Origin: Azospirillum agricola
GTDB taxonomy: Bacteria > Pseudomonadota > Alphaproteobacteria > Azospirillales > Azospirillaceae
DNA: 64,000 bases
Assembly: GCF_017876095.1 (NCBI RefSeq)
Contig: NZ_JAGINM010000003.1
Span: forward strand, 63,491 to 127,490
Reading direction: 5' to 3'
Part shown: positions 9,396-45,812 of the stretch, piece after piece
Layout: each line of letters opens with the position of its first letter
Position numbering within the stretch: position 1 is the stretch's first letter
The notes under the pieces: model-generated
What the model saw: the letters and a program-made list of their open reading frames with translations, nothing else
Told to the model about the DNA's origin: nothing
The model's database searches: none
Position numbers and translations under genes: made by a program

Positions 9396-11327
9396 TCACC
9401 AGTCGGCCTCCATGTCCGCTCCGGCGTCGGCCGGTTGCGGTTGCGGGGCGGCGGTTCCGCCGAAGGCCGGCAGGTCGAAGGCGTCGAGGAACAGGCCGAA
9501 GGTCAGCACCACCATCAGCAGGTCGTCCTCGAAGGTCTGGTTGAGGTCGCGCCCCGGCTCGCGGTGGAGGCGCTTGAGGCGCTCCACCGTGCCGGGGTCG
9601 AAATAGCCGTCGCGGCGGATGCGCTCGGGCGACAGCAGTTCCTCCACCAGCGGCACGCCGTGGCGCAGCAGCGCGGCGCTGCTCGGGGCGACGAAGCTGA
9701 ACTTCTTGCGCTCGACGATCTCCGGCGGCAGGTAGCGGCGGGCCAGCCGCTTCAGCAGGTGCTTTTCCTCGCCGCCATGGACCATCAGGGCGGGGGGGAT
9801 GCGGCGGGCCACCTCGATCACGCCGATGTCGAGGAAGGGATAGCGGGCCTCCACCCCGTTGGCGAAGGCCACCCGGTCGCCATGGTCGGCCAGCAGATGG
9901 TCGGCCATGCGCAGCTTGAAATCGAGGTAGGAGCGCTTGTGGAAGGCGTGCCGCCCGGCCAGCCGGGCGACGTCCACCGGCGGCCGGTCCAGGCAGTCGA
10001 AGCCGGGGAAGCGCGCGGCCACGGCCGGGGAATAGAGGGCCCGCTTGATCTCGGCCGCCGCCAGATAGTTCTTCTCGTAGAAGAATCCCGCGTCGCCCCA
10101 CAGCCGCTGGCGGAGCTGGGATTCCAGCAGGGCGTCGAGGTCGGCGGGGTCGGCGTCCGTCTCCCGGTGCTGGTCCAGCCGGTAGCCGACATAGCCGCCG
10201 AACAGCTCGTCGGCCCCCTCGCCGGTCAGCACCACCTTCAGGCCCCGCTCGCGCACCATCCCCGACAGGATCAGCGAGCAGGCGTTGTAGGATTCCCGCA
10301 GGGGCGCCTCGGCGTGGCGCACGATGTCGGCGAGATGGGCGTGGATCTGCTCCGGCCCGACGGCGGTCTCGTGGTGGAGGCTGCCCAGCCGCCGGGCCAT
10401 CAGGCGCTGGTGGGGGCTCTCGTCGATGCGGCCGTCCCGGAAGGTGATGGAGAAGGTCTGGCGCCGCTCGCCCGGCGTCAGGTCGGCGGCGATGGCGGCG
10501 ATCAGCGAGCTGTCCAGCCCGCCGCTGAGATAGGCGCCGACCGGCACGTCGGCCTGGAGCCGGTAGCGCACCGCCTGCCGCAGGGCGGCGTCCAGCTCCT
10601 CCACCCAGGAGTCCGCCGGACGGCTGTCGTCGATGGCGCCGGCCTCGGGATAGTCGAGGTCCCAATAGACCGAGCGCCGGCGCGCGCCGCTGGATTCCAC
10701 CACCAGCACGGTGCCCGGCTCCAGGCTCTCCACCCCCTCGAACAGGGTGCGCGGGCTGACCGGGCCGGGGAAGGTCAGGATCTGGTCCAGCCCGGTCAGG
10801 TCCACCCGACGCGGCACCGCCGGATGGCGCAGCAGCGCCTTGATCTCCGACCCGAAGACCAGCCCCTCGGCGGTGTCGGCGAGGAACAGGGGAGCGATGC
10901 CGACATGGTCGCGGCCCAGCACCAGCCGGCGGCGGGTGAGGTCGTAGACGGCGAAGGCGAATTGCCCGTTCATGCGGGCGGCGAACTCCGGCCCGTATTC
11001 CTGGTAGAGGGCCGGCAGCACCTCGGTGTCGGCGCGGGTGCGGAAGCGGTGGCCGCGCCGCTCAAGCTCGGCGCGAAGCTCCCCGTGGTTGTAGATCTCG
11101 CCGTTGCACACGGAGACCACGGTGCCGTCGGCGCTGAAGACCGGCTGGTTGCCCGCCGCCAGATCGACGATGGCCAGCCGGCGGAAGCCCAGGCCGATGC
11201 CGGGGGCGGTGAAGAAGCCCTCGTCGTCGGGGCCGCGATGGACCAGCGCCTCGGCCATGGCCGCCAGTCGGTGGCGGGCCACCGGTTCCGGATTGCCGGG
11301 GGTGAAGAGTCCGAGAATTCCGCACAT
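9396..11327 (-). CDS. asnB: Asparagine synthetase (glutamine-hydrolysing) family amidotransferase, AsnB-like, embedded in the NRPS operon
   Basis: 643 aa beginning MCGILGLF (class-II glutamine amidotransferase N-terminal Cys), followed by an Asn-synthase adenylation domain (SGGLDSS PP-loop). ATG at 11327 lies only 5 nt after the megasynthase stop (TAA 11333-11335). The tracked ORF 9396..16922 merely extends this frame upstream as an Arg-rich artefact over the megasynthase. Confidence 0.85.
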   Translation of the reverse strand: MCGILGLFTPGNPEPVARHRLAAMAEALVHRGPDDEGFFTAPGIGLGFRRLAIVDLAAGNQPVFSADGTVVSVCNGEIYNHGELRAELERRGHRFRTRADTEVLPALYQEYGPEFAARMNGQFAFAVYDLTRRRLVLGRDHVGIAPLFLADTAEGLVFGSEIKALLRHPAVPRRVDLTGLDQILTFPGPVSPRTLFEGVESLEPGTVLVVESSGARRRSVYWDLDYPEAGAIDDSRPADSWVEELDAALRQAVRYRLQADVPVGAYLSGGLDSSLIAAIAADLTPGERRQTFSITFRDGRIDESPHQRLMARRLGSLHHETAVGPEQIHAHLADIVRHAEAPLRESYNACSLILSGMVRERGLKVVLTGEGADELFGGYVGYRLDQHRETDADPADLDALLESQLRQRLWGDAGFFYEKNYLAAAEIKRALYSPAVAARFPGFDCLDRPPVDVARLAGRHAFHKRSYLDFKLRMADHLLADHGDRVAFANGVEARYPFLDIGVIEVARRIPPALMVHGGEEKHLLKRLARRYLPPEIVERKKFSFVAPSSAALLRHGVPLVEELLSPERIRRDGYFDPGTVERLKRLHREPGRDLNQTFEDDLLMVVLTFGLFLDAFDLPAFGGTAAPQPQPADAGADMEADW

Positions 11328-11332
11328 CGGCG

Positions 11333-26041
<14,709 letters not shown>

Positions 26042-26949
26042 CGTCAGCGTCTGGGTTGCGGCGGTGCGAGGGGGTGGTCTCGTGCGGAATCTCGGTTGTC
26101 GTTAAAAACAACAATGACATGCAAATCATTTTGCCAACGCGCGTGTCTGGTATGAGTATACATGAGTTTCTTTCTGGTGAAAATCTTAGTTTTTCTTCGT
26201 AATGCTCAGATAAATATTCGGAATCTAAATCGATGATTCCGGTATTTACCGGGTAATCGGAGAATTATCATTGGGATCGGCGATGAGTTCGTGGATTTTC
26301 TGAAAAATATCCTTCGCGAATTGACGGAGGGTTGTCTCTTGATGGGCGGTGTTGGCGGTAAACACGATTGCTGAACGCATCGATCGGCCATCTCGGAGAT
26401 TGTGGATTCCGCGCTGCGAGCGATCAATGGAGTATTAAAGACAAATTATACTTCTCAATGATTGTGATAATGCGCGCCACTACATTTCCTTTATTCTCTT
26501 TGTATAAACCTCGTTTCAGGAATGAGTTTTAAGCAATGAACGGTGAATTTCGAAATTCTCATGGCAATTCATGAATGTTATTGCATCGGTGCGCGCCTAT
26601 GGATTTATACGATCATCTGCCATTTTAGAAAAGACTCTTGTTGTCATTTCATTGTTGCATGGTATATAGCAAAATCTGCATAGATAACGCGGATATGTCA
26701 ATGCTAATGGCGGTTGATTTTATAAAGAATCGGTCATTCATTCGTATTCTTTGCCGTTTGGATGAGTAATTGGTTCCAATTCGGCGCGTGTTATTGAAAC
26801 ACATATGAAATATGTTCTGGAGGTGGATGGGGGTTTCTCTCCCAATAAGGCCGCTTCCTGAAAATTCACTGGACGATGGACCACTGCCGAAGCGGCTGGC
26901 CGCGTCCATCGGAAAACCTTCACCATCACTTCGGCCGGGGGGCGGTGTC
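26042..26949. promoter_or_regulatory. AT-rich (about 40% GC) intergenic island of about 0.9 kb containing the divergent promoters of the megasynthase operon (leftwards) and the hydrolase-autotransporter block (rightwards)
   Basis: Composition drops sharply from about 70% GC. Many A/T runs and short direct/inverted repeats are visible. No credible ORF; the tracked ORFs here are short, start-poor and low in GC3. Confidence 0.6.
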
Positions 26950-29900
26950 ATGGCGTGCAGCAAGGACGAGGTTTGCGAAAGGGGCAGGAGCCGGACAGGG
27001 ATCCTGCGGGATCTGCTGCTGGCGGGTGTCGCGCTGTGCCCGCTGGTGCTGGGGGCGGCCGAGGGCCGGGCCGCCAGCCGGGAGCAGCTGGGGCCGGTGC
27101 TCCAGGCGGTGATCGACATGACCGTGTCCCAGGGCTCCTCGTTGCAGGGCGTGGGCGTGGGGGTGAGCTACGGCAACGGCGAGATCTGGCTGGGGGCCGG
27201 CGGCTACCGGGACATCGCCCGGACCCAGCCCCTGCAACCGACCGACCAGTTCCGCATCGGCAGCCACAGCAAGACCTTCACCGGTACGGCGGTCCTCCAG
27301 CTGGTGGACCAGGGGGCGATCCGACTCGACGACACGCTGGAGCGCTGGCTGCCCAACACCGGCATCCCGAACAGCGGCGCCATCACGGTGCGCAACCTGC
27401 TGAACATGACCAGCGGCATTCCGGATTACCTGATGGCCGCGTCGCTGCGCTATCCGAACATGTCGGTGCTGGCCGAATGGAGCCGCTTCGCCCTCGGCCC
27501 CCCCTACGCCACCGCCGACTACACGCCCGAGCAGCTGATCCAGGCGGTGGTCCAGACGCCCGGCCAGACCTATGGCGCGGTCGGGCAGATGAAGTATTCC
27601 AACACCAATTTCGCCCTGCTGGGAATGATCGCCCAGAAGGCGTCCTGCGCCACGGCCGGGGGCTGCCGCTCCATCGAGACCCTGGTGAACAGCGGCGTCA
27701 TCCAGCGGCTTGGCATGGGGAGCACCCTGTTCCCCGTCGACGGGAACTTCACCGGCGTCCCGGTGCAGAACCTCCAGACCGTCATGCCCAGCGACGTGAT
27801 GCCCGGAATGCCCGCCGGCTCCTACAACGTCACCAACGCCAACCCCAAGGTGCCATGGGCGGCGGGATCGATCCTGTCCACCCCCCTGGACGAGCTGACC
27901 TGGATTCGCCAGCTGGCGCTCAACAACCAGAACCTGCTGTCCCAGCAGACCCAGATCGAGCGGCTGACCAGCACGGTGCCCGGCAACGTCGCCTACATTC
28001 CGGTGCAGTACGGGCTGGCGATCTACCACATGCCCTCCACCGGAACCGGCACCCAGCTGGTCGGCCACAGCGGCCAGATCGGCGGCTACGTCTCGTCCAT
28101 CTTCTACGATCCCCTGCTGGACGTCGCGTTCTCCATCAACATGACGGGCTACGCGACCGACGCCGCTCCCTGGTACCCGCTCTACGGCGGCAGCGCCTAC
28201 GCCGACGCCCTCCAGGGCGGCAACTTCAACACCGTGCCGATCCTGTGGGCGCTGGACCGCAACCTTCAGATCGCCATGCAGGCCCAGGGGAACTGCACCG
28301 GCTGGGGAGGGGACGTCACCGCCGCGCCGGCCACCTGCGCCGGCGACAGCGTCCGCACGGCGGCGCTGGACGTGTCGGGTTCCCTGACCGTGCAGCCGTC
28401 CGGGCGGGGCATCACCAACGCCGTGATCACCAACATCACGGATCCCATCCCCCAGGTGGCCTTCGTCACCGTGCCGCGCCCCAGCATCGCGTTCTTCGGC
28501 AGCGGCATGGCCGGCATCAACCTGAATCCGGGCGCCTCCCTGATCCTCCAGCCCGGCTCGATCATCGAGATGACCGGGGTCAACTCCGCCGCCGTCCTCC
28601 TGGGGGGCTACAACACGGTGACCGCCTCCGGCACGGTCAACGCCTATGGGGCGGGCAGCTCCGCCTTCGGGCTTCTCGGCAGCGGCAGCACCCTGAGCAT
28701 CGGCCCCTCCGCCAATGTGCTGGGCGACGTCCGGCTGGGCCGGGGGACCACCAACACGGTGATCGTGGACGGCGTGGTCGCCGGCAACATCGACATGACG
28801 AACACCAACACCCGGTTGCAGGGAAGCGGCCTCATCACCGGCACCGTCGGCGGCGGCGGCCGGGTGGCGCCGGATTACATCGTCGCCGGCGGGCTGGGCG
28901 GCGGCACCCTGCCCCAACTGACCGTCGGCTCCTACAACGGAAACAACACGGTGCTGGAGATCCACACCCGGCCGGGTGGGGTCAGCAACCGGCTGGTGGT
29001 GGCCGGCACCGCCGATCTGCTGGGCGGCACCCTGGAGCTGAATCCCGACTCGACGCGGCTGGACGGAATCTACACGGTGCTGACCGCCGGCACCGTCCTG
29101 AACCGGTTTTCCTTCGTCAACTCCATCGACCGCACCGCGGTGCGCGCCTATTACGGAGCGGGAGAGGTGACGGCGGCGGCGGTCAACGCGGTCAGCTTCG
29201 ACATGGGCGTGCGCACCGCCAACGCCGGCATCGGCCAGCATCTGGGCGTTCTCCAGGACCGGGCGGCGCTGTTCGGCGGCTCGCCGTTGCAGGTGGCGGC
29301 CCGGCCCGGCGGCACCCTGTCGGACGCCGCCGGCTCGGGCATCGAGGGGTTCGTGCCGCGCCGGCCGGTGGAGCTGCGCGGCCCCCGTGGGGTCAACCTG
29401 TGGAGCGACGCCTTCTACCACATGGGCCGCTTCGACCAGGCCAACGGGACCGCCGGCATCCGCAGCCACGGCATCGGCCTGGCGCTGGGCGCCGACGTCG
29501 AGCTGTCCCGCAGCCTGGGCGTCGGCGCCATGGCCGCCTACCAGACCACGCGGGCCAGGGCGGGCGACGGCAACGACACGGAACTGGATTCCCGGGCCTA
29601 CTACGCCGGCCTCTACGGCGTGGCGAAGCTGGACGCGGTGACGGTCGACGCCTCGCTCCTGGCCGGCATCGGCGACAACGACACCCGCCGCCCGACCATG
29701 GTCCTGGGCTCGGCGATGGCGGCGGCAGGCGATTACCGCGATCTGCGGCTGGCGGCCAAGCTGGGGGTCAGCCGCGAGGTCGACGCCGGTTTCGCCACCC
29801 TGGTGCCGCGGCTGGCGGCCTCCTGGTCGCGGGTGCAGGGCGATGGCTACGCCGAGAAGGGGGCGGGCGTCGGGGCGCTGGCGGTGGACAGCACCTCGTC

Positions 29901-30234
29901 CCAGCTGTTCCGCGCCGAGGCGTCGCTGGGCCTGCGCCGGGTCTTCGATCTCGGCGACGGCGACCTGGGCGGCGGCGGCCTGCTGAGCGAGCTGCGGGTC
30001 GGGGTGGCGCGCGACGTCGAACTCGAGGGGCGCACCGAATCGGGCCGGGTCATCGCCTACGACCTCCCCCTCAGCGTGGACGGCTACGCCGAGAACCGCT
30101 GGAGCGTCCCGGTGTCGGCCCGGGTCGAGGCCATGGCCGGCGAAACCGTCAGCCTGTTCGGCGCCTATGGCGGCGAATTCTCTTCCCGCTCGGCCAGCCA
30201 CCGCTTCAACGCCGGCCTGCGGGTCCGCTTCTGA
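26950..30234 (+). CDS. AmpC/class-C beta-lactamase-fold serine hydrolase (esterase/DD-peptidase family) fused to a C-terminal autotransporter beta-barrel
   Basis: Signal peptide (MACSKDEVCERGRSRTGILRDLLLAGVALCPLVLGAAEG). SxxK (GSHSKTF), YxN (YSNTN) and HxG (GHSGQIGGY) motifs. Long Gly/Thr/Asn-rich passenger repeats. C-terminal beta-domain ending ...NAGLRVRF (terminal aromatic). An alternative start at ATG 26812 has no SD. Confidence 0.7.
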   Translation: MACSKDEVCERGRSRTGILRDLLLAGVALCPLVLGAAEGRAASREQLGPVLQAVIDMTVSQGSSLQGVGVGVSYGNGEIWLGAGGYRDIARTQPLQPTDQFRIGSHSKTFTGTAVLQLVDQGAIRLDDTLERWLPNTGIPNSGAITVRNLLNMTSGIPDYLMAASLRYPNMSVLAEWSRFALGPPYATADYTPEQLIQAVVQTPGQTYGAVGQMKYSNTNFALLGMIAQKASCATAGGCRSIETLVNSGVIQRLGMGSTLFPVDGNFTGVPVQNLQTVMPSDVMPGMPAGSYNVTNANPKVPWAAGSILSTPLDELTWIRQLALNNQNLLSQQTQIERLTSTVPGNVAYIPVQYGLAIYHMPSTGTGTQLVGHSGQIGGYVSSIFYDPLLDVAFSINMTGYATDAAPWYPLYGGSAYADALQGGNFNTVPILWALDRNLQIAMQAQGNCTGWGGDVTAAPATCAGDSVRTAALDVSGSLTVQPSGRGITNAVITNITDPIPQVAFVTVPRPSIAFFGSGMAGINLNPGASLILQPGSIIEMTGVNSAAVLLGGYNTVTASGTVNAYGAGSSAFGLLGSGSTLSIGPSANVLGDVRLGRGTTNTVIVDGVVAGNIDMTNTNTRLQGSGLITGTVGGGGRVAPDYIVAGGLGGGTLPQLTVGSYNGNNTVLEIHTRPGGVSNRLVVAGTADLLGGTLELNPDSTRLDGIYTVLTAGTVLNRFSFVNSIDRTAVRAYYGAGEVTAAAVNAVSFDMGVRTANAGIGQHLGVLQDRAALFGGSPLQVAARPGGTLSDAAGSGIEGFVPRRPVELRGPRGVNLWSDAFYHMGRFDQANGTAGIRSHGIGLALGADVELSRSLGVGAMAAYQTTRARAGDGNDTELDSRAYYAGLYGVAKLDAVTVDASLLAGIGDNDTRRPTMVLGSAMAAAGDYRDLRLAAKLGVSREVDAGFATLVPRLAASWSRVQGDGYAEKGAGVGALAVDSTSSQLFRAEASLGLRRVFDLGDGDLGGGGLLSELRVGVARDVELEGRTESGRVIAYDLPLSVDGYAENRWSVPVSARVEAMAGETVSLFGAYGGEFSSRSASHRFNAGLRVRF

Positions 30235-30360
30235 GGCCGTGGCGCGGGGGTCGCGCGGGAAACCATGGACGGCGGGCCGACGCTCCCCGGAGCGGCCGGC
30301 CCGCCGTCCGATCTGTGCAAGACCATGAGCGACTGCAACACGAAGGAGCTGGAACACGCC

Positions 30361-30948
30361 ATGACCGAAAATCTGCACACAGACGTCAAGCCCGCCGGGG
30401 AGGTCGTTCCCGTCGACCGCCGCGCCAAGGCCGACGAGATCGTCCGCAAGCACGCCATCCTGGCCGCCGGGCTGGGCCTGATCCCCGTTCCGGTGCTGGA
30501 TCTGGCGGCGATCAGCGGCGCCCAGTACAAGATGATCCGCGAGCTGGCGGATCTCTACGGGGTGCCGGCCTCCAACGACCGGCTGCGGTCGATCGTCACC
30601 GCCCTGCTCGGCGGCGGGCTGCCGTTCCTGCTGAGCACCGGGTCGCTGGGCGCCGTCGCCAAGTCGATCCCGGTGGTCGGCACGGTGGTCGGCATCGCGG
30701 TGATGCCGTCCCTGGCCGGCGCGGCGACCCTGGCGCTGGGCCGGGTGTTCACCGCCCACTTCCGGGCCGGCGGCAAGCTGCTGGACCTCGATGTGGACGA
30801 GTTGCGCGAGCATTTCCACAGGGAGTTCGAGGCGGCCAAAAGCAACCCGGACGACCATGGCGTGCCGGCGTCCCCGGTCGAGGTTCCGGTGGCGCCCGTC
30901 GCGGTGACCAAGCCGGCGGCCAAGACGCCGCCGTCCCCCACCGTCTGA
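30361..30948 (+). CDS. DUF697 (YcjF-like) domain protein
   Basis: Motif HAILAAGLGLIPVPVLDLAAISGAQYKMIRELADLYG, typical of DUF697. Start chosen at the ATG (MTENLH...) preceded by AAGGAG 13 nt upstream; the tracked ORF begins earlier at 30265 (weak SD). Confidence 0.5.
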   Translation: MTENLHTDVKPAGEVVPVDRRAKADEIVRKHAILAAGLGLIPVPVLDLAAISGAQYKMIRELADLYGVPASNDRLRSIVTALLGGGLPFLLSTGSLGAVAKSIPVVGTVVGIAVMPSLAGAATLALGRVFTAHFRAGGKLLDLDVDELREHFHREFEAAKSNPDDHGVPASPVEVPVAPVAVTKPAAKTPPSPTV

Positions 30949-31037: not shown

Positions 31038-31265
31038 ATGGCTCATGTCGTCTACATCGCGCTCTGTCTCATGGTCGGTGCCTTCGCCATAGGGCAGCGC
31101 GGCGGCTTTTTCCTGTACTTCATCCTGTCGCTCGCGATGTCTCCCCTGGCCGGGCTGCTGATCCTGATCATCGCGACCTCGCGTCTCGACCAGGAACGGC
31201 GGTCGATCCTGACCGACCGCCCCCCGTCGGCGCCCCCACTGTCGCAGCAGACCTCCAGACCATGA
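31038..31265 (+). CDS. Small two-TM membrane protein, translationally coupled (ATGA) to the SPFH gene
   Basis: MAHVVYIALCLMVGAFAIG...FFLYFILSLAMSPLAGLLILIIATS. AAAGGACA precedes the ATG. Its stop overlaps the next start at 31262-31265. A GTG at 30990 is an alternative start. Confidence 0.4.
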   Translation: MAHVVYIALCLMVGAFAIGQRGGFFLYFILSLAMSPLAGLLILIIATSRLDQERRSILTDRPPSAPPLSQQTSRP

Positions 31266-32740
31266 CCGACACCGCCGCCGCCCCGGAGACGTTCCGCGTC
31301 CGCTTCGCCCGCATCCCGCCGGTCCGCCGGCTGCGGGACTGGTACCTGCGCCACCGGCGCAACATCCTGCTCGGGGTGCTGATCGCCCTGTTCGTCGCCG
31401 TCTACCTCGCCCCGCTGATGGTGGTCAGCGTGCCGCCCGGCCATGCCGGGGTGCTCTACCGCCGCTTCGGCGGCGGCATCGACGTGCGCACGGTGCTTCA
31501 GGAAGGGGTGACGCTGATCTGGCCGTGGAACACGGTGACCGTCTACGACGTCCGTCTCCAGTACCGGCGGGAGGAGTACGAGGCCATCGCCCGCGACGGG
31601 CTGCACATCAGGATCGCCGTCAGTTTCCGCTACCGTCCCGATCCCGACGCCGTCGCCTACCTGCACAAGGCCGTCGGCCCCGACTACACCAACATCCTGC
31701 TGGTCCCGGAGGTCGGCTCCATCACCCGCCGCGAGGTGTCGCGGTATCTGGCGAGCGAGGTCTACGGCCCGCTGCGCAGCCAGATCCAGGACCAGATCTA
31801 CCGCGGGGTGCTGGACCACACCGACGGCAACCTGATCGGCGGAGTCCGCTTCTCCCAGCGGACCGACCATTACGGCCTGTTCCTGGCGGTGCCCCCGGAG
31901 CAGGGCATCCCGCACGACGTTCCCAAGGGGCGGGGCGCGCCGCTCGGCTCCAACGGCGTGGCCGACACCTTCATCGAGCTGAACGACGTGCTGATCAGCG
32001 ACGTGGTGCTGCCCGAGCGCGTCCGCGCCGCCATCGAGCGCAAGGAGGAGCAGGGACAGCTTGTCCAGGAATACGCCTTCCGCCTGGAGCGCGAGCGCTT
32101 CGAGAGCCAGCGCAAGGCCATCGAGGCGGACGGCATCCGCCAGTTCCAGGACAAGGTGCAGGAGGGAATCTCCGACAATTACCTGAAATGGCGCGGGATC
32201 GAGGCCACCCTGAAGCTGGCCGCCTCGGCGAACGCCAAGACGGTGGTGATCGGCGGCCAGAACGGCCTGCCGCTGATCCTCAACACCGGCGAGGGCGCCG
32301 TGCCGGCGCGGCCGGGGCACCCGCCGGCGACCGTGCCGCCCGAGATCGACAGCAGCGGCCTCGACCTGCCGGACCAGGAGCCGGGGAACCGGGACCCGAT
32401 GCCGCCGCCCGGCAGCGATCCCCACGCCGACCCGCGCACCGATGTCCGGCCGGGCGCCAAGCTGGCCCTGCGCGGCGATCCGGGCCCGGCACCCGTGGCG
32501 GCGACGCCGCTCCGCACCGCCCCGGTCGAACCGGTGCTCTCGCCCCTGATGGGGTTGGAGGGCACCGCCGGTCTGCTCGGCAGCCTGGGCGGCATTCTCG
32601 GCACGGTGCTGGGGCCGGGCGAGCGGATCCCCGCCATCCGTCCGGATTCCGTCCGTCCGTCCTCCGTCCAGCCCCCGCCAACGCCGCCGATGGCGCCGCC
32701 CACCACCCGTCCGCCCCCCATGGGAGCGACCGATCCATGA
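31262..32740 (+). CDS. SPFH/band-7 (prohibitin/HflKC-like) domain membrane protein with a Pro-rich C-terminus
   Basis: N-terminal TM (ILLGVLIALFVAVYLAPLMVV), then an SPFH core (VYDVRLQYRREEYEAIARDGLHIRIAVSFRYRPDPDAV...), a coiled-coil (ERKEEQGQLVQEYAFRLERERFESQRKAIEADG) and a PPxP-rich tail. Its stop overlaps the next ATG (ATGA at 32737). Confidence 0.8.
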   Translation: MTDTAAAPETFRVRFARIPPVRRLRDWYLRHRRNILLGVLIALFVAVYLAPLMVVSVPPGHAGVLYRRFGGGIDVRTVLQEGVTLIWPWNTVTVYDVRLQYRREEYEAIARDGLHIRIAVSFRYRPDPDAVAYLHKAVGPDYTNILLVPEVGSITRREVSRYLASEVYGPLRSQIQDQIYRGVLDHTDGNLIGGVRFSQRTDHYGLFLAVPPEQGIPHDVPKGRGAPLGSNGVADTFIELNDVLISDVVLPERVRAAIERKEEQGQLVQEYAFRLERERFESQRKAIEADGIRQFQDKVQEGISDNYLKWRGIEATLKLAASANAKTVVIGGQNGLPLILNTGEGAVPARPGHPPATVPPEIDSSGLDLPDQEPGNRDPMPPPGSDPHADPRTDVRPGAKLALRGDPGPAPVAATPLRTAPVEPVLSPLMGLEGTAGLLGSLGGILGTVLGPGERIPAIRPDSVRPSSVQPPPTPPMAPPTTRPPPMGATDP

Positions 32741-34074
32741 CCGGCGGCCTGCGGACAGGCCTCCTTTCCGTCCTGCTGGCGGCGCTGGCGGCCGGCGGGG
32801 CGGCGGCAGGAACCTTCGTCGAAGGGCCGCCGCCGGAAGCGGGCCAGCCTCCGGCGGTGGCCGTCCGCGACCCCGACGCGCAGCGCGGGGAGGCGACCGG
32901 CCGCACCGAAGCCACCCAGCCCCTGGACGTTCCGGACGGCGCCGCGTCCCTGGGCCTGCTGGGCGGGGCGCTCGCCGTGGCCCCGAAGCTGTCGCTGCAC
33001 TCGGTCTACACCACCAACGCCCTCAAGGATTCCAGCCGCATCGACGGCGTCCGGCTGGTGACCGCGCCGGCCCTCACCCTGCGCACCGGCAAGGATCTGT
33101 TCGGGGGCGCCGCCGGAGGGGAGGCGACCGGCTCGGCCCGTCTGACCCGCTATCTGGCCGGCGGCGTGCAGAGCCTGGGGGAGTATCTGGCCGGCGGCTC
33201 CGTCTTCGTCCGGCCCGCCGACGGCCTCACGGTCACCGGCGGGATCACCGTCACCCGCCAGCAGCTCAGCCAGGGCAGCCTCAACGCCGTTTCCGGCGCT
33301 TCCAGCACCGTGCGGGAGGGAACCAAGTACAGCCTCGGCGTCAGCCACGCGCCCGGTCCGCTGGAAACCAGCCTGCGGCTGTCCCGCGACGAGCGCCGCT
33401 ACGCCGCCGTCAGCCGCGGCGGGCAGACGATCGACCTGACCGGCCGCGACAACGACGAGACCATCGCCGTCGCCAAGCTGGCCTACAAGGGGGCGACGTC
33501 GTTCCAGCCGCACCTGCTGGCCTCGGTCAACCGCAACGTCTATGTCCGGGACACCAGCCGCCAGTTCTACGACCGGGATTCCCGGGGCTGGCAGATCGCC
33601 GCCGGCCTCCAGGCCAAGCCGCTCGCGGGGGTGAGCGTCTCCGGCCAGTTGGGGCTGCTGCGCCAGGATTACGACGATCCGCGCTTTTCCCCCGTGGTCG
33701 GGCCGGTGGGCAACGCCACCCTTCGCTGGGACATCGCCGCCGACTGGGCGGCGACCCTGGAGTGGAGCCGCATGGCGGCCGAATACGTCTACCCCGGCAC
33801 GCCGGGAATCTTCGTGTCCGGCTATGGCGGGCGGCTGTCCCACCAATGGTCGTCCGCCCTGCTGCTGGAGGCCCGGCTGGACTCCACCGTGCAGCGGGCC
33901 ATCCAGCTTCCCGTCACCTACCGCGAACTCACCGCCACCGTCGGCGGTGCCTGGACGCTCGCCCCTTGGGCCGTCCTGGAATTCGGCTACATGTACGACA
34001 TCCAGTACACCTCCACCGGAGAGGACGAGTACACCGCCCACAGCCTCGGCGCCGGCCTCACCGTCTCGTTCTGA
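32737..34074 (+). CDS. Putative outer-membrane beta-barrel protein
   Basis: 445 aa. Signal peptide (LLSVLLAALAAGGAAAG). Alternating amphipathic beta-strand pattern rich in G/T/S/Y/R. C-terminal ...LGAGLTVSF ends with an aromatic residue. The real start lies inside the long artefactual ORF 31525..34074. Confidence 0.6.
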   Translation: MTGGLRTGLLSVLLAALAAGGAAAGTFVEGPPPEAGQPPAVAVRDPDAQRGEATGRTEATQPLDVPDGAASLGLLGGALAVAPKLSLHSVYTTNALKDSSRIDGVRLVTAPALTLRTGKDLFGGAAGGEATGSARLTRYLAGGVQSLGEYLAGGSVFVRPADGLTVTGGITVTRQQLSQGSLNAVSGASSTVREGTKYSLGVSHAPGPLETSLRLSRDERRYAAVSRGGQTIDLTGRDNDETIAVAKLAYKGATSFQPHLLASVNRNVYVRDTSRQFYDRDSRGWQIAAGLQAKPLAGVSVSGQLGLLRQDYDDPRFSPVVGPVGNATLRWDIAADWAATLEWSRMAAEYVYPGTPGIFVSGYGGRLSHQWSSALLLEARLDSTVQRAIQLPVTYRELTATVGGAWTLAPWAVLEFGYMYDIQYTSTGEDEYTAHSLGAGLTVSF

Positions 34075-34122: not shown

Positions 34123-37100
34123 ATGATCACGCGCGATGACATCAAGGATATCTACCCCCTGACCCCGTTCCAGGAGGGAATCCTCTATCATGACCTGATC
34201 GACCAGGATGCCGTGGCCGGCGAGCCGAGGGCCTATTTCCAGCAGCTGATCTTCCGCATCCGGGGCCCGCTCGACCTGACGGCCTTCGAGGAGGCGTGGC
34301 GGCATGTGATCGGCCGTCACGACATCCTGCGCACGGTGTTCCGCACCGGCGGCCGCGACCGGCCGTTGCAGATCGTGCTGAAGCGCGTCGACTTCGCGCT
34401 GGAGCGCCAGGACAGGGCCGGCCTGACCCCGGCCGAACGGGACGCCGCCCTGGCCGGCTACGCCGCCGGGCAGCGGCGCCGGCCCTTCGCGCTCGACCGC
34501 GCCCCGCTGACGCGGGTGGGCTGCCTGAGCTTCGGTCCCGGCCCCGACGGGCGGGCCGATCATGGGGTGGTGTGGGACTTCCATCACATCCTGGTGGACG
34601 GCTGGTGCCTGGGCCTGCTCCAGGACGAGCTGGCCGACGCCTATCAGGCCTTCGCCGCCGGCCGCCGGCCGTCGCCGCGTCCGGCGCTGCAATACGCCAG
34701 CTTCGTCCAGTGGGTGGAGGCCCGCCGGGGCGACGGGCGGCTGGCCTTCTGGTCGGACTATCTGGCCGGCTACGAGACGGCGCTCGACCTGCCGGGCCAG
34801 CGGCCGGTGCCGCTCCCCGGCCCGCGCGACCCGCGCATCCACCGGCTGCGCCTGGAACCCGGCCTGCTGGCGCGGCTGGGCGAGCTGGGGCGCGAGCAGG
34901 GGGTGACCGCCAGCACCCTGGTGCAGACCCTGTGGGGGCTGGTGCTGGCCAAGCACAACAACACCCGCGACGTGGTGTTCGGCAGCGTCGCCTCCACCCG
35001 GCCGCCGGAACTGGCGGGCAGCGAGGCGATGGTCGGCCCCTGCATCGGCATGCTGCCGCTGCGCGTCGGCTTCGAGGCGGGCGAGAGCTTCCGTGGCCTG
35101 CTCCGCCGCACGCGCGACCGGATGCTGGACTGGCTGGACAACGTCCATTGTCCGCTGGCCGAGATCCAGGCGCGCAGCGGGCTGCGCAACGGCCTGTTCA
35201 GCCATTACTTCGTCTTCGAGAACTACCCGCTGGAGGAGCGCTTCAAGGGCGAGGCCCAGGAGCTGGCCCCCGGCGTGACCGTCGGCGACGTGTCGGTGTT
35301 CATGGCCAGCCACTATGATTTCCTGATCCGCGCCCTGCCACCGGACGCGGATGGGATGCTGGTGGAGTTCGAATACAACGCCCGCGTCGTCGATCCGGCC
35401 GCCGTCGAGGCGATGGCCGGCCGGCTGGGGCTGCTGGCCGAGCGCGCCGCCGGACGGCCGGACGAGCCCATCGACGCGCTGTCGCTGCTCGACGACGCCG
35501 AGCGCGCGCTCATCCTCGACCGCTGGAGCCGAGGCGCCGATCCCGTCCGCTTGGCCGCGACGGTGCCGGAGCGGCGCGCCGCGGTGGTGGCGGCCGGCGG
35601 CGACCGGCCGGCGGTGCGCGGCCGGCGGGGCGTCCTGTCGCATCGCCAACTCCAGGAGCGGGCCGAGGCGCTGGCCCGCCACCTGCACCACCAGCACGGC
35701 GTCGGCGTCGGCAGCGCCGTCGCGATCCACGCCGAGCCGGGCGAGCCGATGCTGCGGGGCATGCTGGCCTGCCTGCTGCTGGGCGCCGCCTTCGTCCCGC
35801 TGGATCCGGCCCTGCCGGCGCCCCGCGTCCGCCACATGCTGGCCGACAGCTACGCCGCGGTGATCCTGGCGGCGTCCCCGGCGGCGGTGGAGGCGGTCGC
35901 CGGGGCGCTGCCGGTGGTGGTTGTTTCCGAGGGGGATGTCGACGGGAACAAGGCCGGCACCCTGTCCGGCGCGCCGCTGCCGGCGGTGCCGGCGGACGCC
36001 CCGGCCTACATCATCTACACCTCGGGCACGACCGGGCTGCCGAAGGGGGTGCGGGTCGGGCAGGCGTCGCTGCTCAACTACGCCGGCTGGCTGAGCCGCG
36101 ACCTCGGCATCGGTCCGGGAAGCGCCACCGCCCTGGTGACCTCGGCGGCCTTCGATCTCGGCTACACCGGCCTGTTCGGGACGCTGCTGCTGGGCGGTTG
36201 CCTGACTCTGCTGGACGAGGACGAGCGGCGCGATCCGGACCGGGTGATGGATGCGGTGGTCGGAGACCGGCTGAGCTTCCTCAAGGCGACGCCGTCCTAC
36301 CTGAACATGCTGCTGGCCTCGCCGGCCGGCCGGCGCTTCGTCGAGGCCGAGGCGCTGGAACTGGTGCTGCTGGGGGGCGAGCCGCAGAATTTCGACGATC
36401 TGGGGCGGCTCCGGGCCTTGCGGCCGGGCTTGCGGATCCTCAACCATTACGGCCCGACCGAGGCCACCATCGGCTGCGTCGCCGGCCCGCTCGACGATCT
36501 GGCGGGGGTCTCCGGCGCTCCCCAGCGCATCGGCCGCCCGGTGGCCGGCGCCCGAATCCTGCTGTGCGACCACACTCTGGCCCCGGTGCCGCCGGGAGTG
36601 CCCGGCGAACTGGTGGTCGGCGGCCTGCCGCTGGCCCAGGGCTACATGAATCCGACCCCCGCCGACGCCGCCCGCTTCACCACGCTGCCCGCGCTCGGCG
36701 GCGCCCCGGTCTACCGCACCGGCGACTTCGCCCTGTGGCAGGCCGACGGCACCATCGTCTTCCTCGGCCGCCGCGACGACCAGATCAAGGTGCGCGGCCA
36801 TCGCGTCTCGCTGAGCGGGGTCGAGGCGGCCCTGCGCGAGACGCCGGGCGTGAAGGACGCGGTGGTGCTGGCCGAACGCGCCGCCTCCCCCGACCAGGGA
36901 ACGGAACTGACCGCCTACCTGATCCTCCAGGACGGCGCGGGTGCGGCCAGGCCGACGGCAGCGGGCCTGCGCGCCGATCTGGCCGGACGCCTGCCCGAAC
37001 CGATGATCCCCGGCCGTTTCGTCACGGTCAGCCGCTTCCCGATGACCGCCAACGGCAAGATCGACCGCGCGGCCCTGGCCGGGCAGCGGCGGACGGACCG

Positions 37101-38148
37101 GCCGGCGGCCCCGGCCGACGCCGAGGCCGGGACCGCCTCCGCCACCGCCACCGCCACCGAGGAGACCTTGCGGGGCATCTGGCAGGAGATCCTGTTCGTC
37201 GAGCGGGTCGGGCTGGACGAGGATTTCTTCGCCCTGGGCGGCCACAGCATCAAGGCGATCCTGATGATCGCCAAGGTCCGCACCGCCCTGAAGAAGAGCT
37301 TCACCATCCGCGACCTGTTCGAGAACCCGACCATCCGCCGGCTGGCCGCGCGCCTGGACGCCATCGGCGGCGGGGCGGTCTCCCCGGCGGTCTCGCAGGC
37401 GGCGGCCCGGCCGTCGCCGCTGCTGGCGCTCCGCCCGGCCCCGGCGGGCGCTCCGGCGGCGCTGTTCCTGCCGCAGGCGCTTGGCACCGCCACCCTGTAC
37501 AAGGAACTGGCGGCGGCGCTGTCGGCGGAGGTGGCCTGCTGGGGAGTGCAGTGCCCCGGCTTCGACGGCGACGAGCCCTTCGCCCCGTCCCTCGATGCCC
37601 TGGCCCGCGGCTTCGCCGCCCAGGCCGCGACGCTGGCGGGGCCGGGGACGGAGCCGCTGCGGCTGGTCGGCTGGTCCTTCGGCGCCCATCTGGCGGTGGA
37701 GACGGCCCGTCACCTGGAAAAGGCGGGACGGGCGGTGCGGCTGGTGCTGATCGACGCCGGGCCGCGCCCGGATGATGCGGGGGAGCCGCCCTTCACCGGC
37801 TTCGCCGAGCTGCGCACCCGGCCCTACTGGGGGCGCGTGCTGTCGATCCTGATGGACGGCCTGCCGGCGCAGGATGTGGCGAGGCTGGAGCGGTTGGTGC
37901 GTCACAACATCGCCCTGCTGGCGAAGCATGATCCCGCCGCCGACCCGATCGCCGCCGACATCCTGGCCATCGAGGCGATGGACAACCCCCGGCCGGCCGG
38001 GATGCATGGCTTCGCCGACCTGACCCGTGGGCGGGTGACGGTGCACCGGCTGCCGGGGGACCATTACTCCCTGTTCCACCCGCCGCATGTCGCCCGCGTC
38101 CTGGAGGTGCTGGACACCGCCCTGTCGGCCCGGCGCGTTCCGGCCTGA
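34123..38148 (+). CDS. Terminating NRPS module: C(DCL-type)-A-T-TE
   Basis: 1341 aa. N-terminus DIKDIYPLTPFQEGILYH (hallmark of DCL condensation domains that accept a D-configured donor) and HHILVDGWCLG. A (YIIYTSGTTGLPKG, NHYGPTEAT, YRTGDF, KVRGHRVSLSGVE, NGKIDR). T (FFALGGHSIKA). TE (GWSFGAHLA = GxSxG; HYSLF... region). Confidence 0.92.
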   Translation: MITRDDIKDIYPLTPFQEGILYHDLIDQDAVAGEPRAYFQQLIFRIRGPLDLTAFEEAWRHVIGRHDILRTVFRTGGRDRPLQIVLKRVDFALERQDRAGLTPAERDAALAGYAAGQRRRPFALDRAPLTRVGCLSFGPGPDGRADHGVVWDFHHILVDGWCLGLLQDELADAYQAFAAGRRPSPRPALQYASFVQWVEARRGDGRLAFWSDYLAGYETALDLPGQRPVPLPGPRDPRIHRLRLEPGLLARLGELGREQGVTASTLVQTLWGLVLAKHNNTRDVVFGSVASTRPPELAGSEAMVGPCIGMLPLRVGFEAGESFRGLLRRTRDRMLDWLDNVHCPLAEIQARSGLRNGLFSHYFVFENYPLEERFKGEAQELAPGVTVGDVSVFMASHYDFLIRALPPDADGMLVEFEYNARVVDPAAVEAMAGRLGLLAERAAGRPDEPIDALSLLDDAERALILDRWSRGADPVRLAATVPERRAAVVAAGGDRPAVRGRRGVLSHRQLQERAEALARHLHHQHGVGVGSAVAIHAEPGEPMLRGMLACLLLGAAFVPLDPALPAPRVRHMLADSYAAVILAASPAAVEAVAGALPVVVVSEGDVDGNKAGTLSGAPLPAVPADAPAYIIYTSGTTGLPKGVRVGQASLLNYAGWLSRDLGIGPGSATALVTSAAFDLGYTGLFGTLLLGGCLTLLDEDERRDPDRVMDAVVGDRLSFLKATPSYLNMLLASPAGRRFVEAEALELVLLGGEPQNFDDLGRLRALRPGLRILNHYGPTEATIGCVAGPLDDLAGVSGAPQRIGRPVAGARILLCDHTLAPVPPGVPGELVVGGLPLAQGYMNPTPADAARFTTLPALGGAPVYRTGDFALWQADGTIVFLGRRDDQIKVRGHRVSLSGVEAALRETPGVKDAVVLAERAASPDQGTELTAYLILQDGAGAARPTAAGLRADLAGRLPEPMIPGRFVTVSRFPMTANGKIDRAALAGQRRTDRPAAPADAEAGTASATATATEETLRGIWQEILFVERVGLDEDFFALGGHSIKAILMIAKVRTALKKSFTIRDLFENPTIRRLAARLDAIGGGAVSPAVSQAAARPSPLLALRPAPAGAPAALFLPQALGTATLYKELAAALSAEVACWGVQCPGFDGDEPFAPSLDALARGFAAQAATLAGPGTEPLRLVGWSFGAHLAVETARHLEKAGRAVRLVLIDAGPRPDDAGEPPFTGFAELRTRPYWGRVLSILMDGLPAQDVARLERLVRHNIALLAKHDPAADPIAADILAIEAMDNPRPAGMHGFADLTRGRVTVHRLPGDHYSLFHPPHVARVLEVLDTALSARRVPA

Positions 38149-38191: not shown

Positions 38192-39160
38192 TCAGACCAG
38201 GGCGCTGTGGGGATCGCTCATCGCCACCACCACGCGCCGCGCCCCGGTGAAGGGGGTGCGCCCGTGGGAATAGCGCATGTTGTCGATCAGCAGCACATCG
38301 CCGGCCAGCCAGGGAAAGGCCAGGGTCTCGGCGGCGAAGGCTTCCCGCACCGCCTCCAGATCCGCCGACGCGATGGGGCCGCCGTCGCCGTGGAAGGCGT
38401 TGCGGGGCAGATCGTCCTCGCCGAACATGGCGATCATGGCCTCCTGCAACTCGGCCGGCAGGCTGGAGATGTGGAACAGGTTGGCCTGGTTGAACCACAG
38501 CTCCTTGCCGCTGCCGGGATGGAGGGCGGTGCCCTGGCAGACATGGGAGGTGCGCAGGCGGTCGCCGCCCAGCCACGCGAAGTCCATGCCGTTGGCCCGG
38601 CAATAGGCCTCCACCTCGCCCGGAACGTCGGTCTGGAACACCGTCTGCCAGGGCAGGTCGACGCCGTGGCCGTAGTTGCGCACGTACAGGACGCCGCGCT
38701 CGCGGAAGCGGGCCATGCGTTCGGTTCCGATGCGGGCCGTCACCCGCTCCATGTCGGCCAGCGGCGTCTCGCCGCCGGTCGCCGCCGGCACCACGCACTG
38801 GAAGGCCAGCAGCATCGGCCAGTCGCGGTGATAGGCCATCTCGCAATGCTGGGGAATGGTGTGGTTGGCCGGGTATTCGGTGGTGGTGTAGACCTTGCCG
38901 TCGACGCGGGTGCGCGGCGTCGACTGGTTGACGTAGGTCAGCAGGTCTTGTGAAAAGAGCGAGAGGAAATCCTCCAGCCCGGCCACCGGCCGCGCCTCGA
39001 AGCCGCGCAGCAGCACCGCCCCGCGCTCGGCCAGCAGCGCCCGGATCGCGTCGCGGCGCCCGTCGGCCCAGGCGATCAGGTTGGTTCCGTCCGCCGGCGG
39101 CGTGACGACGGCGATGGACGATCCCGCAAACAGATCACTGACGGTCAACCCGCTGCTCAT
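38192..39160 (-). CDS. TauD/TfdA-family Fe(II)/2-oxoglutarate dioxygenase, SyrP/AsnO/KtzO-like amino-acid beta-hydroxylase candidate
   Basis: 322 aa with a clavaminate-synthase-like fold signature (...YPANHTIPQHCEMAYHRDWP...DNMRYSHGRTPF). It lies convergent to and immediately downstream of the TE-containing NRPS. Confidence 0.8.
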   Translation of the reverse strand: MSSGLTVSDLFAGSSIAVVTPPADGTNLIAWADGRRDAIRALLAERGAVLLRGFEARPVAGLEDFLSLFSQDLLTYVNQSTPRTRVDGKVYTTTEYPANHTIPQHCEMAYHRDWPMLLAFQCVVPAATGGETPLADMERVTARIGTERMARFRERGVLYVRNYGHGVDLPWQTVFQTDVPGEVEAYCRANGMDFAWLGGDRLRTSHVCQGTALHPGSGKELWFNQANLFHISSLPAELQEAMIAMFGEDDLPRNAFHGDGGPIASADLEAVREAFAAETLAFPWLAGDVLLIDNMRYSHGRTPFTGARRVVVAMSDPHSALV

Positions 39161-39439: not shown

Positions 39440-40546
39440 ATGGCCGGAACGCGTGGAATTGGACGGGACGAGAGCGCGGCGATCCTCGCGGAGGCCCGCC
39501 GCATCGTCCTGGACGGCGACCGGGGGGCGCTGGCGCCGCCGGCCTCGCTGGCGGGTCTCGCGGAGGTCCTGGCCGACCGCTTCGATGAGACCTACACGGC
39601 CGAGCGCGTCGTCGATCTGCTCGATCCGGCGCATTGGCGTTCGCTGCGGAGGCGTCTCGCCGGCGAGGGCGCCGAGGTCTGGTTGCCGGCGGATGTCGCC
39701 GCCCGGCTGAAGGAGATCGCCGACGAGCCCGCCGACGCGATCCGCATTCTGCTGGAGGGCCGGCCGGGCCCGCCCGAGCCGGGCAGCGAGGAGCATTGCC
39801 GCAGCCGGCTCTGCGCGCCCCGGATTCGTCTTTCGGATCCCGGCCGCTGGGCATGCGCGGCCTGCGGGCTGGAAGGGGATGTCCAGCGGCCGTTCAACCC
39901 GGTGATCCGGGAGCGGCTGGCCGGCGAGCAGGACCGCATCGGCGATCTGCACGCGCTCGCCGCCGGAATCTACGAAACCTGGGGAGCGGGGGAGCGTTTC
40001 ACCCTGGCGGAGTGCGCGGCGCGCCGTCCGCCCGGCGTCCGGGCCGACCGCGACCGGCTCAAGAGCCTGCTCGCCGATCTGGTGCAGGCCGGGCTGGTCG
40101 AGGAGGCGCCCGGCCCGCGCGGCGGTGCCGGCTGCCGGGTTCTCGACGAGCCGCCCGACTGGATCGCCGACGCCCTCGCCGAGCGCCGCGAGCAGCGCGC
40201 GGCGGAGGCCCGCTTGCGGGACGACCGGGCCACGGCGATCCGGCGCGCGCTGGAGGAGGGGCTGACCCACACCACGCCCGCAGGCGAGGTTGTCGAGGTC
40301 GCGCAGAGCGAGCGCGGGCTGGAACTCCGGTTCCCGGCGATCCCGTCCTGGGAACTCCGGGAGGAGATGAAGCGGCAGGGGCACTGCCGCTGGGACGGCC
40401 GCCGGCGCCGCTGGTGCCGGGCGTCGCCGGTCGCCGTCGTCGAGCCCTGGCTGGCGGCGGCGCTCGACGCCGGGGCGACGGTTGCCCCCCTGGGGACGGC
40501 GGACCCCGACGCGGAGGATTGGGCGCAGCCGGATTGGCCCGACTGA
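39440..40546 (+). CDS. Hypothetical protein with a Cys4 zinc-ribbon-like cluster (HCRSRLC...WACAACG)
   Basis: 368 aa, high GC3, good SD (GGAGGAA), acidic/Leu/Ala-rich composition unlike the Arg-rich artefact frames. No family recognised. Confidence 0.45.
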   Translation: MAGTRGIGRDESAAILAEARRIVLDGDRGALAPPASLAGLAEVLADRFDETYTAERVVDLLDPAHWRSLRRRLAGEGAEVWLPADVAARLKEIADEPADAIRILLEGRPGPPEPGSEEHCRSRLCAPRIRLSDPGRWACAACGLEGDVQRPFNPVIRERLAGEQDRIGDLHALAAGIYETWGAGERFTLAECAARRPPGVRADRDRLKSLLADLVQAGLVEEAPGPRGGAGCRVLDEPPDWIADALAERREQRAAEARLRDDRATAIRRALEEGLTHTTPAGEVVEVAQSERGLELRFPAIPSWELREEMKRQGHCRWDGRRRRWCRASPVAVVEPWLAAALDAGATVAPLGTADPDAEDWAQPDWPD

Positions 40547-40561
40547 CGCGCCGGTGGAGGA

Positions 40562-41875: not shown

Positions 41876-41880
41876 GGTCC

Positions 41881-43239: not shown

Positions 43240-43380
43240 GAAGGACTCTCCGGGAGACGGTTGGAGGGGACAGGCCCGCACTGTGCCGCCGTGCCGTGCC
43301 GTGGCGATGACGCGGCCTTGCAGGGACGGAGGAAACTCCGTGCAGAACTTGTGCAGGGGATCGGGTAGAGTTGCGCCGCC

Positions 43381-45677: not shown

Positions 45678-45812
45678 TCTTCGGGCCACGCGGTGGCGGT
45701 TCCGTGATTCGACGGGAACCACCAAGTGTTGCAGAACGCGGAAATGCGCTACAACGCCGAAGATGCGTTCGACACGCAATCATTTTCAAAATCCAGGGAT
45801 CGAAACACGCCG

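Follow-up and report, generated by a model that had tools for sequence, protein, structure and literature searches.

The gene at positions 26950..30234 (+) of a 64,000-nucleotide stretch of Azospirillum agricola DNA (contig NZ_JAGINM010000003.1, positions 63,491 to 127,490; hereafter the window) encodes a protein of 1094 amino acids (aa), in which a serine hydrolase of MEROPS family S12 is joined to an autotransporter. [quoted passage not shown] As to function, we put at about one in two (0.5) the probability that the protein is a cluster-dedicated, envelope-tethered, D-stereospecific serine peptidase, which would cut the exported lipopeptide after its D-residue.

Conservation of the S12-autotransporter family within one cluster family

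The family is rare. A search of 5.8 billion proteins gave 31 clusters of sequences that match past the generic S12 core, and an exhaustive search of 1.84 billion representatives gave 25 at E<=1e-3 for the region of junction and stalk (aa 400-640). All independent loci anchored on the S12 gene (7/7) adjoin orthologues of the same megasynthase and/or thioesterase (TE) module, in varying gene order. Their S12 proteins have 33-54% identity to the window protein and come from Alpha- and Betaproteobacteria. Autotransporter forms are encoded in Azospirillum sp. TSH100 (54% identity), Pseudochelatococcus (44%), Methylobacterium sp. EM32 (39%), a genome from a read archive (35%) and a metagenome-assembled genome (MAG) of Telmatospirillum (33%), and barrel-less forms in GCA_977010415 (50%) and a Sphaerotilus MAG (42%). 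A DUF697 gene is adjacent in all but the Telmatospirillum locus, and a small open reading frame (ORF) and a Band_7 gene are usually adjacent as well. The S12 gene is divergent from the megasynthase gene in Azospirillum, and directly follows the ABC exporter gene in Methylobacterium, in Pseudochelatococcus (46-bp gap) and in the cluster L092. As a background, about 7 of 78 generic S12 loci (~30% identity, core only), among the matches listed, lie near any NRPS-like sequence; this background and the loci L007 and L008 were obtained by a scan of genome contigs.

In the reverse test, six further clusters were inspected via orthologues of the TE module, and an S12 gene was sought within 10 kb. Such a gene was found in four of the six, three of them belonging to this family and one being divergent and signal-less. 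The family members are a secreted 446-aa orthologue in Endothiovibrio (34% identity, E 5e-43), a lipoprotein-type protein in a metagenomic cluster, and a 1149-aa autotransporter form in L092 that is near-identical to the family member P0004. The divergent protein, of 547 aa, is encoded in Roseixanthobacter liquoris (L087, 14751-18209), where it is accompanied by a peptidase of the DmpA/BapA family (Peptidase_S58). Beta-aminopeptidases are among the S58 enzymes, a suggestive fact where the lipopeptide contains a beta-amino acid.

The original prediction had proposed a functional tie between the gene and a lipopeptide cluster, and the rarity of the family and the results of the two anchored searches bear this out. 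Conservation of the gene elsewhere, in genomes lacking the cluster, was looked for, and every one of the seven homologue loci proved to be linked to it. The prediction had also described the gene as standing next to the cluster. The association holds and the position is corrected: the gene lies inside the cluster, with the megasynthase gene on one side and, on the other, the terminal NRPS module and a TauD-family dioxygenase gene beyond it.

Architecture and class of the S12-autotransporter

The ORF has a GC content at third codon positions (GC3) of 0.93, the coding signature of real genes in this window of 72% GC, and its product is identical to the database protein WP_209777418 of A. agricola; a second strain has a 1098-aa version. 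Pfam searches identified a beta-lactamase domain (PF00144, aa 60-400, E 1e-48) and an autotransporter domain (PF03797, aa 817-1074, E 1e-31, matched over the full profile, 1-255 of 255). The alignment of homologues was used to build an AlphaFold2 model, which had a mean pLDDT (predicted local distance difference test) of 85.8 and a pTM (predicted template modelling score) of 0.76. By inspection, the protein begins with a Sec-type signal peptide (~aa 1-40, 26950..27069), in which a basic n-region (RGRSR) precedes the hydrophobic segment LLLAGVALCPLVLGAA; these residues have a pLDDT below 50 in the model. The S12 catalytic domain, similar to R61 and alkaline D-peptidase (aa 44-445, 27079..28284), is modelled as a globular alpha/beta fold coinciding with PF00144.

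The three motifs of the family are all present. Motif I is SHSK (aa 105-108, 27262..27273), with Ser105 as the nucleophile and Lys108, and aligns with SVTK of alkaline D-peptidase; motif II is YSN (aa 216-218, 27595..27603), with Tyr216 and Asn218; and motif III is HSG (aa 373-375, 28066..28074), with His373 and Gly375, an HxG form that aligns with HGG of alkaline D-peptidase. No variation was found at S105, K108, Y216, N218, H373 or G375 across 31 aligned family members. Both members of a cysteine pair at the junction of S12 domain and stalk (Cys449 and Cys463, 28294..28338) are also invariant in the 31 sequences. The mature protein has only four cysteines, arranged as two close pairs, C233/C239 and C449/C463; closely spaced cysteines are tolerated by autotransporter passengers during secretion.

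The stalk, rich in Gly, Thr and Val (aa 461-745, 28330..29184), is modelled as a beta-helix of unbroken short strands with a pLDDT mostly above 85; its Gly content is 16.5%, as against 10.9% for the S12 domain and 13.9% for the whole protein. A linker that is alpha-helical over aa 748-776 and disordered over aa 778-812 (together 29191..29385) leads in the model to the C-terminal outer-membrane beta-barrel translocator (29392..30234), which is all-beta over aa 815-1093, ends in GLRVRF, and matches the barrel of the EstA autotransporter (3kvn) in Foldseek. The PF03797 barrel with its terminal Phe, the beta-helical passenger, the helical linker and the signal peptide (by inspection) are the features of a type Va autotransporter. 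With a Sec signal, a beta-helix stalk and a type Va barrel, the protein would display its catalytic domain at the outside of the outer membrane. The fusion of a hydrolase, a Gly-rich passenger and an autotransporter barrel that had been read from the sequence is confirmed, down to the ends of the ORF.

Barrel-less relatives differ in their anchor. In a rough neighbour-joining tree of the catalytic domain, calculated with no support values, they form three derived clades, and the barrel is widespread and basal. Canonical lipoboxes (LSGC, LAGC, VAAC) occur in one of these clades, and sequences resembling a lipobox (AGGC/AAGC) in another. Since the barrel-less relatives mostly have lipoprotein signals, the comparison suggests that what stays constant in the family is attachment to the cell envelope, whether through an autotransporter or through a lipid anchor.

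With respect to the class of the hydrolase, the best sequence match in the PDB was the alkaline D-peptidase of Bacillus cereus (4y7p, 2e-26). Close behind came an S12 peptidase from Streptomyces (3wwx, 2e-25), and then the D-stereospecific hydrolase 9s7k and the Streptomyces R61 DD-peptidase (4e-16). SurE (6ksu, 2e-7), EstB (1ci8, 2e-6) and other esterases (7atl, 7spn) matched more weakly, and ClbP was not found among the best 60 matches. In the search of 5.8 billion proteins, the closest sequences outside the family were from Bacillales, some of them annotated as alkaline D-peptidase, with 31-33% identity over the S12 domain only. Foldseek gave a similar ranking for the model: the leading structures, with template modelling (TM) scores of 0.78-0.83, were R61 (TM 0.81, E 4e-23), D-stereospecific amidohydrolases (3wwx), a D-amino-acid amidase and alkaline D-peptidase, and AmpC scored about 0.70. 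The third motif of S12 enzymes has been defined as HxG in the R61 type and KTG in AmpC (PMC12903863), and the protein has the SxxK, YxN and HxG motifs and the R61 fold of the R61-alkaline D-peptidase (HxG) branch of MEROPS S12 / PF00144.

From the sequence ranking in the PDB, the fold ranking and the HxG third motif, the catalytic domain is therefore assigned to the D-stereospecific peptidase/amidase branch of MEROPS S12, and not to AmpC proper. A class C (AmpC) beta-lactamase was considered and rejected: the NCBIfam class C models gave 25-40 bits against cut-offs of 415-880 (bla_class_C, 36.6 bits against 415), HSG stands in place of KTG, and AmpC ranks lower structurally. The original prediction had read SHSK, YSN and HSG as marks of a class C beta-lactamase/DD-peptidase domain; the motifs are confirmed, and the AmpC part of that reading gives way to the R61/alkaline D-peptidase branch. 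Of its analogies, EstB and D-aminopeptidase (DAP) are more distant in the PDB sequence ranking than alkaline D-peptidase and R61.

Predicted lipopeptide and proposed function

The substrate of such an enzyme can be approached through the assembly line of the cluster. The megasynthase (4902 aa, 11333..26041, -) has the domain order FAAL-ACP-KS-AT-ACP-aminotransferase-C-A*(remnant)-T-C-C'-A(Thr code)-T-C from Pfam and motifs, where C, A and T are condensation, adenylation and thiolation domains, and its start follows the iturin/mycosubtilin/puwainaphycin logic for a beta-amino fatty acid. The second NRPS (1820..9325, -) has the order A-T-C-A(methyltransferase insert)-T-E and closes with an epimerisation (E) domain (~1823-3268) carrying the motifs PIQRWFF, HHLVVDSVSW and FNFLG, the sole E domain of the assembly line. 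The terminal module, C(DCL-type)-A(Asp-type)-T-TE (34123..38148, +), begins with DIYPLTPFQEG, a C domain start of the type that accepts D-donors, and the other C domains have the SxAQxRLW form. Essentially all of 37 terminal-module orthologues have this DCL-type start, and all 37 share the NHYGPTE..IG half of the Asp-type code.

Specificity codes and C domain motifs were read by eye on established NRPS knowledge, without a predictor. The codes are DFWNIGMVHK for the Thr-type A domain of the megasynthase, DVRHLALLAK and DAATIAAVCK for the first and second A domains of the second NRPS, the latter containing the inserted methyltransferase, and DLTKLGHIGK (Asp-type) for the terminal module. DAATIAAVCK is of the aromatic type, agreeing at 8/10 positions with the GrsA Phe code DAWTIAAICK (Stachelhaus code). 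A TauD-family dioxygenase (38192..39160, -), syntenic in TSH100 with 75% identity, is a candidate beta-hydroxylase. The product is thus predicted to be a beta-amino-fatty-acyl pentapeptide with a single D-residue, penultimate and aromatic, followed by (hydroxy)Asp, and the D-aromatic residue is probably methylated. The lipopeptide with a D-residue that had been expected from the window alone agrees with the succession of an E domain and a DCL-type C domain, at the level of sequence prediction.

Two parts of the assembly line deserve separate mention. In the stretch of megasynthase aa ~2250-3810, the first peptide module has the order C-A*-T and retains no more of its A domain than a C-terminal remnant, so that loading of its amino acid must take place in trans. 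Two C-type domains in succession come next, and the second of these, with HHAVADK and not HHxxxDG, precedes the Thr-activating A domain. Between the two large NRPS genes lies the gene of an asparagine-synthase-type amidotransferase (9396..11333, -). It passes the TIGR01536 cut-off, keeps its N-terminal Cys (MCGILG) and has conserved counterparts in the related clusters L002 and L003; candidate targets are the Asp side chain, the C-terminal carboxylate, or the supply of Asn for the module lacking an A domain. A beta-lactam product accompanied by a resistance enzyme was considered and rejected: beta-lactam synthetases are not known to have the N-terminal Cys of glutamine amidotransferases, this AsnB-like protein keeps it and passes the asparagine-synthase cut-off, and the S12 domain lies far under the cut-off of every beta-lactamase model.

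In the mechanism that we propose, the assembly line would make the beta-amino-fatty-acyl pentapeptide with its penultimate D-aromatic residue followed by (hydroxy)Asp, and the ABC exporter of the cluster (112..1752, -; Pfam) would move it out of the cell. Ser105 would then attack the D-residue at its carbonyl; Lys108 and Tyr216 would act as acid/base, alongside His373 of motif III, and water would resolve the acyl-enzyme, so that the D-Xaa-Asp bond is cut. Such a cleavage would either open a macrolactam or remove the terminal Asp. In the least certain part of the scheme, the cut would destroy or trim product that stays at, or returns to, the surface of the producer, a form of self-protection that would work together with the co-conserved DUF697, small transmembrane and SPFH membrane proteins. 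We lean to protection or turnover over maturation as the purpose, because the enzyme is tethered to the producer and travels with the SPFH and DUF697 proteins, and also because one relative cluster has cytoplasmic enzymes of the D-/beta-aminopeptidase type instead.

Several points weigh against this scheme. Degradation of one's own exported product is costly, and a maturation step fits the same facts equally well. The structure of the product is itself a prediction, from a line whose first module has no functional A domain, and the TE domain may cyclise or hydrolyse. The S12 protein of Roseixanthobacter is signal-less, so a surface location is not universal. Two of the TE-anchored clusters (L089 and L091) have no S12 gene within 10 kb, in flanks that end inside the megasynthase; a related S12 variant (P0027) and a TE-module orthologue of the L089/L091 subgroup (P0101) each lie on a 739,786-bp contig, and on both grounds the absence of the gene there is not established.

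Maturation or activation is the foremost alternative, although we consider it unlikely: an exported pro-form would be trimmed by the surface enzyme, for example by removal of the C-terminal Asp, and the active compound released outside. The structural and synteny evidence serves it as well as it serves a protective peptidase, the S12 gene stands directly after the ABC exporter gene in three lineages, and from ClbP it is evident that an NRPS pathway may depend on an S12 peptidase for its final step (PMC12903863). ClbP and XcnG resemble the window enzyme in having an S12 fold, in being exported from the cytoplasm and in being dedicated to a late step of an NRPS/PKS pathway. The known prodrug logic is, however, absent. 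ClbP removes an N-acyl-D-Asn laid down by a special starter module, C-A(Asn)-T-E, whereas the window line starts with FAAL-ACP-KS-AT-ACP-aminotransferase; and ClbP is anchored in the inner membrane by three C-terminal transmembrane helices, whereas the window enzyme has none and ends in a beta-helix and a barrel. With the sole E domain in the penultimate module, the ClbP-type prodrug analogy drawn in the original prediction is disfavoured. Moreover, an enzyme tethered to the outer surface would process only molecules near the producer, and the co-conserved DUF697 and SPFH genes, of a membrane-maintenance type, would fit protection better.

A general surface D-peptidase or DD-peptidase-like enzyme, acting on foreign D-peptides or antibiotics or in scavenging and merely hitch-hiking with the cluster, seems to us distinctly improbable. 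D-stereospecific peptidases against the peptides of other organisms do exist, as in Lip3/Lip7 and the activity of B. anthracis on gramicidin, and an S8 protease autotransporter 15 kb away indicates that this genome uses autotransporters for surface proteases generally. Against this, synteny with the cluster holds down to 33% protein identity, through rearranged gene orders and across bacterial classes, and the family was essentially not found elsewhere in the searches of 5.8 billion proteins and 1.84 billion representatives. The cell's own peptidoglycan would be beyond the reach of an outer-surface passenger.

There is still less to be said for an esterase or lactonase, similar to family VIII esterases, opening a depsipeptide ring through Thr, Ser or beta-hydroxy-Asp. 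S12/PF00144 includes esterases, with EstB (1ci8), 7atl and 7spn among the PDB matches, and the peptide is predicted to contain hydroxylated residues from the Thr code and the TauD gene; yet the esterase matches are 18-20 orders of magnitude weaker than those to D-peptidases, and D-stereospecific peptidases/amidases are what both the third motif, HxG, and the leading structural matches point to.

We give hardly any credence to an offloading cyclase of the SurE or penicillin-binding-protein (PBP) type, or to an extracellular transpeptidase using D-Xaa-Asp as acyl donor. The fold is common to SurE (6ksu) and to the R61 DD-transpeptidase/carboxypeptidase. Classical offloading is excluded by the topology of an exported, surface-anchored enzyme, carrier-protein thioesters being cytoplasmic, and by the TE domain that the cluster has of its own in cis, so this analogy of the original prediction is also disfavoured. 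SurE-type enzymes have a lipocalin-like domain, and the stalk is modelled as a beta-helix. The transpeptidase, for which we know of no extracellular precedent, is just as improbable. Here the tethered S12 enzyme would take the D-Xaa-Asp terminus of the exported linear lipopeptide as donor, the predicted D-Xaa-Xaa-COOH end being formally like that of a DD-peptidase substrate; Asp would be expelled and the lipopeptidyl group passed to an amine, as a DD-transpeptidase does with acyl-D-Ala-D-Ala. The acceptor would be either the lipopeptide's own beta-amino group, which iturin-type logic would leave free as a nucleophile, so that macrocyclisation would take place outside the cell and independently of ATP, or an acceptor on the cell surface, which would be covalently lipidated. 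If true, non-ribosomal peptides would have a new route of completion beyond the cytoplasm, and the reaction would explain the constant envelope tethering and the invariant terminal Asp module with its preceding D-residue.

Gene neighbourhood

Genes of the window were called by GC3 plus Pfam. The S12 gene and the megasynthase gene diverge from a spacer of 908 bp (26042..26949) with 44% GC against 72% for the window, which confirms the shared AT-rich region that had been noted upstream of both. Equivalent spacers are likewise AT-rich in Azospirillum sp. TSH100 (46% GC) and GCA_977010415 (48% GC). In an alignment of the three spacers a block at ~26678-26720 (GCATAGATAACGCGGATATGTCAATGCTAATGGCGGTTGA) was common to all and the rest was unalignable; the block, a candidate site for a promoter or a regulator, lies about 250 bp upstream of the S12 gene. 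The spacer gave no Rfam match, a promoter scan gave no excess over shuffled sequences, and scans of it for terminators and repeats gave nothing above chance. The shared divergent promoter region and the 46-bp gap after the Pseudochelatococcus ABC gene suggest co-expression of the S12 gene with the cluster.

Downstream of the S12 gene follow a DUF697 membrane protein gene (30265..30948, +; Pfam), a small hydrophobic ORF resembling two transmembrane segments (31038..31265, +) and an SPFH/Band_7 membrane protein gene (31262..32740, +; Pfam E 2e-23), all co-conserved with the cluster. A DUF697 gene is present in 13 of 14 related loci, and counterparts of the small ORF, of 58-75 aa, were called between the DUF697 and Band_7 genes in related loci. 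This trio occurs in almost every related locus, wherever the S12 gene sits, and its candidate roles are membrane protection or export. With PADLOC, none of the S12, DUF697 and SPFH proteins matched a defence system, and NCBIfam gave no match for the trio. Between the Band_7 and terminal NRPS genes, concealed in a long spurious shadow ORF, lies the gene of a BBP2_2 outer-membrane beta-barrel porin (32737..34074, +; Pfam E 4e-34), which has a signal peptide and ends in TVSF. Two related clusters, L087 and L090, also encode a porin of this family, and the TSH100 locus has none; the lipopeptide could leave through this porin across the outer membrane.

Past the TauD gene, two ORFs, 39440-40546 (+) and 40547-41977 (+), gave no Pfam match; the first has a gene-like GC3 of 0.89 and the second looks like an antisense shadow. 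A second autotransporter, 15 kb from the S12 gene (45726-48674, +), has an S8 subtilase passenger and a PATR repeat, and adjoins genes for a CreD-like inner-membrane protein and a histidine kinase (41881-44040, - and 44070-45677, +). This autotransporter has no synteny with the cluster in related genomes.

Relation to known systems and significance

The same SxxK/YxN/HxG catalytic domain is found in the secreted enzymes of the alkaline D-peptidase (4y7p) and R61 group. Those, however, are free single-domain proteins of ~350-390 aa without a link to an NRPS cluster, whereas the window enzyme adds the family-specific Cys-pair junction, the beta-helix stalk and the barrel, and is embedded in a biosynthetic cluster. 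Among cluster-encoded enzymes, TriF and BogQ are described (PMC9541196, PMC12903863) as D-stereospecific resistance peptidases of the tridecaptin and bogorol clusters of Bacillales, TriF cutting non-ribosomal peptides after aromatic D-residues and BogQ after cationic ones (PMC9541196). In common with the window enzyme they are S12 peptidases encoded with an NRPS cluster whose product has one or more D-residues, a feature that is predicted here, and the preference of TriF is for aromatic D-residues, the single D-residue of the window cluster being predicted to be aromatic. They differ in their Gram-positive hosts and other accessory domains, the window enzyme being proteobacterial and anchored as an autotransporter or, in relatives, as a lipoprotein.

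The DL-peptidases Lip3 and Lip7 of Paenibacillus act on lipopeptides (PMC12903863; PDB 9sn1). They too are S12 enzymes, cut lipopeptides at D-L bonds near the C-terminus and have an extra beta-rich C-terminal domain, and their structural match to the window protein is moderate (Foldseek rank 45). Unlike it, they have KGG as motif III (a Ser-Lys-Lys-Tyr tetrad) where the window enzyme has HSG, target the lipopeptide of another organism, and are not autotransporters. The EstA esterase and the S8 autotransporter of the window are laid out like the S12 protein, with a signal peptide, a catalytic passenger in the N-terminal part and a PF03797 barrel at the C-terminus; in such autotransporters the passenger is GDSL, S8 or S6, whereas here it is S12.

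Literature searches found no autotransporter with a passenger of S12/beta-lactamase fold in an NRPS context, and no description of this cluster family or of its anchor swapping. S12 peptidases in NRPS clusters and enzyme-bearing autotransporters are each known; what seems to be new is their combination, the cluster family that it marks, and the swapping of anchors. ClbP, TriF, BogQ and Lip3/7 represent an emerging class of S12 D-peptidases that activate, tailor or destroy non-ribosomal peptides. The gene offers a genome-mining handle for the cluster family and predicts cleavage of its product after the single D-residue, and as a candidate stereospecific DL-peptidase the enzyme may be of use in analysis or biocatalysis.

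For the biology of the family, the gene marks a widespread family of clusters for beta-amino-lipopeptides, iturin-like in kind, in Alpha-, Beta- and Gammaproteobacteria associated with plants and soil, with hosts in Azospirillum, Methylobacterium, Pseudochelatococcus, Telmatospirillum, Sphaerotilus and Endothiovibrio. Known S12 peptidases encoded in biosynthetic gene clusters are Gram-positive or inner-membrane enzymes, and this gene would add an outer-membrane autotransporter form in Proteobacteria. The exchange of autotransporter and lipoprotein anchors among close relatives may be seen as a natural experiment, in which selection would keep the tethering of the enzyme to the envelope.

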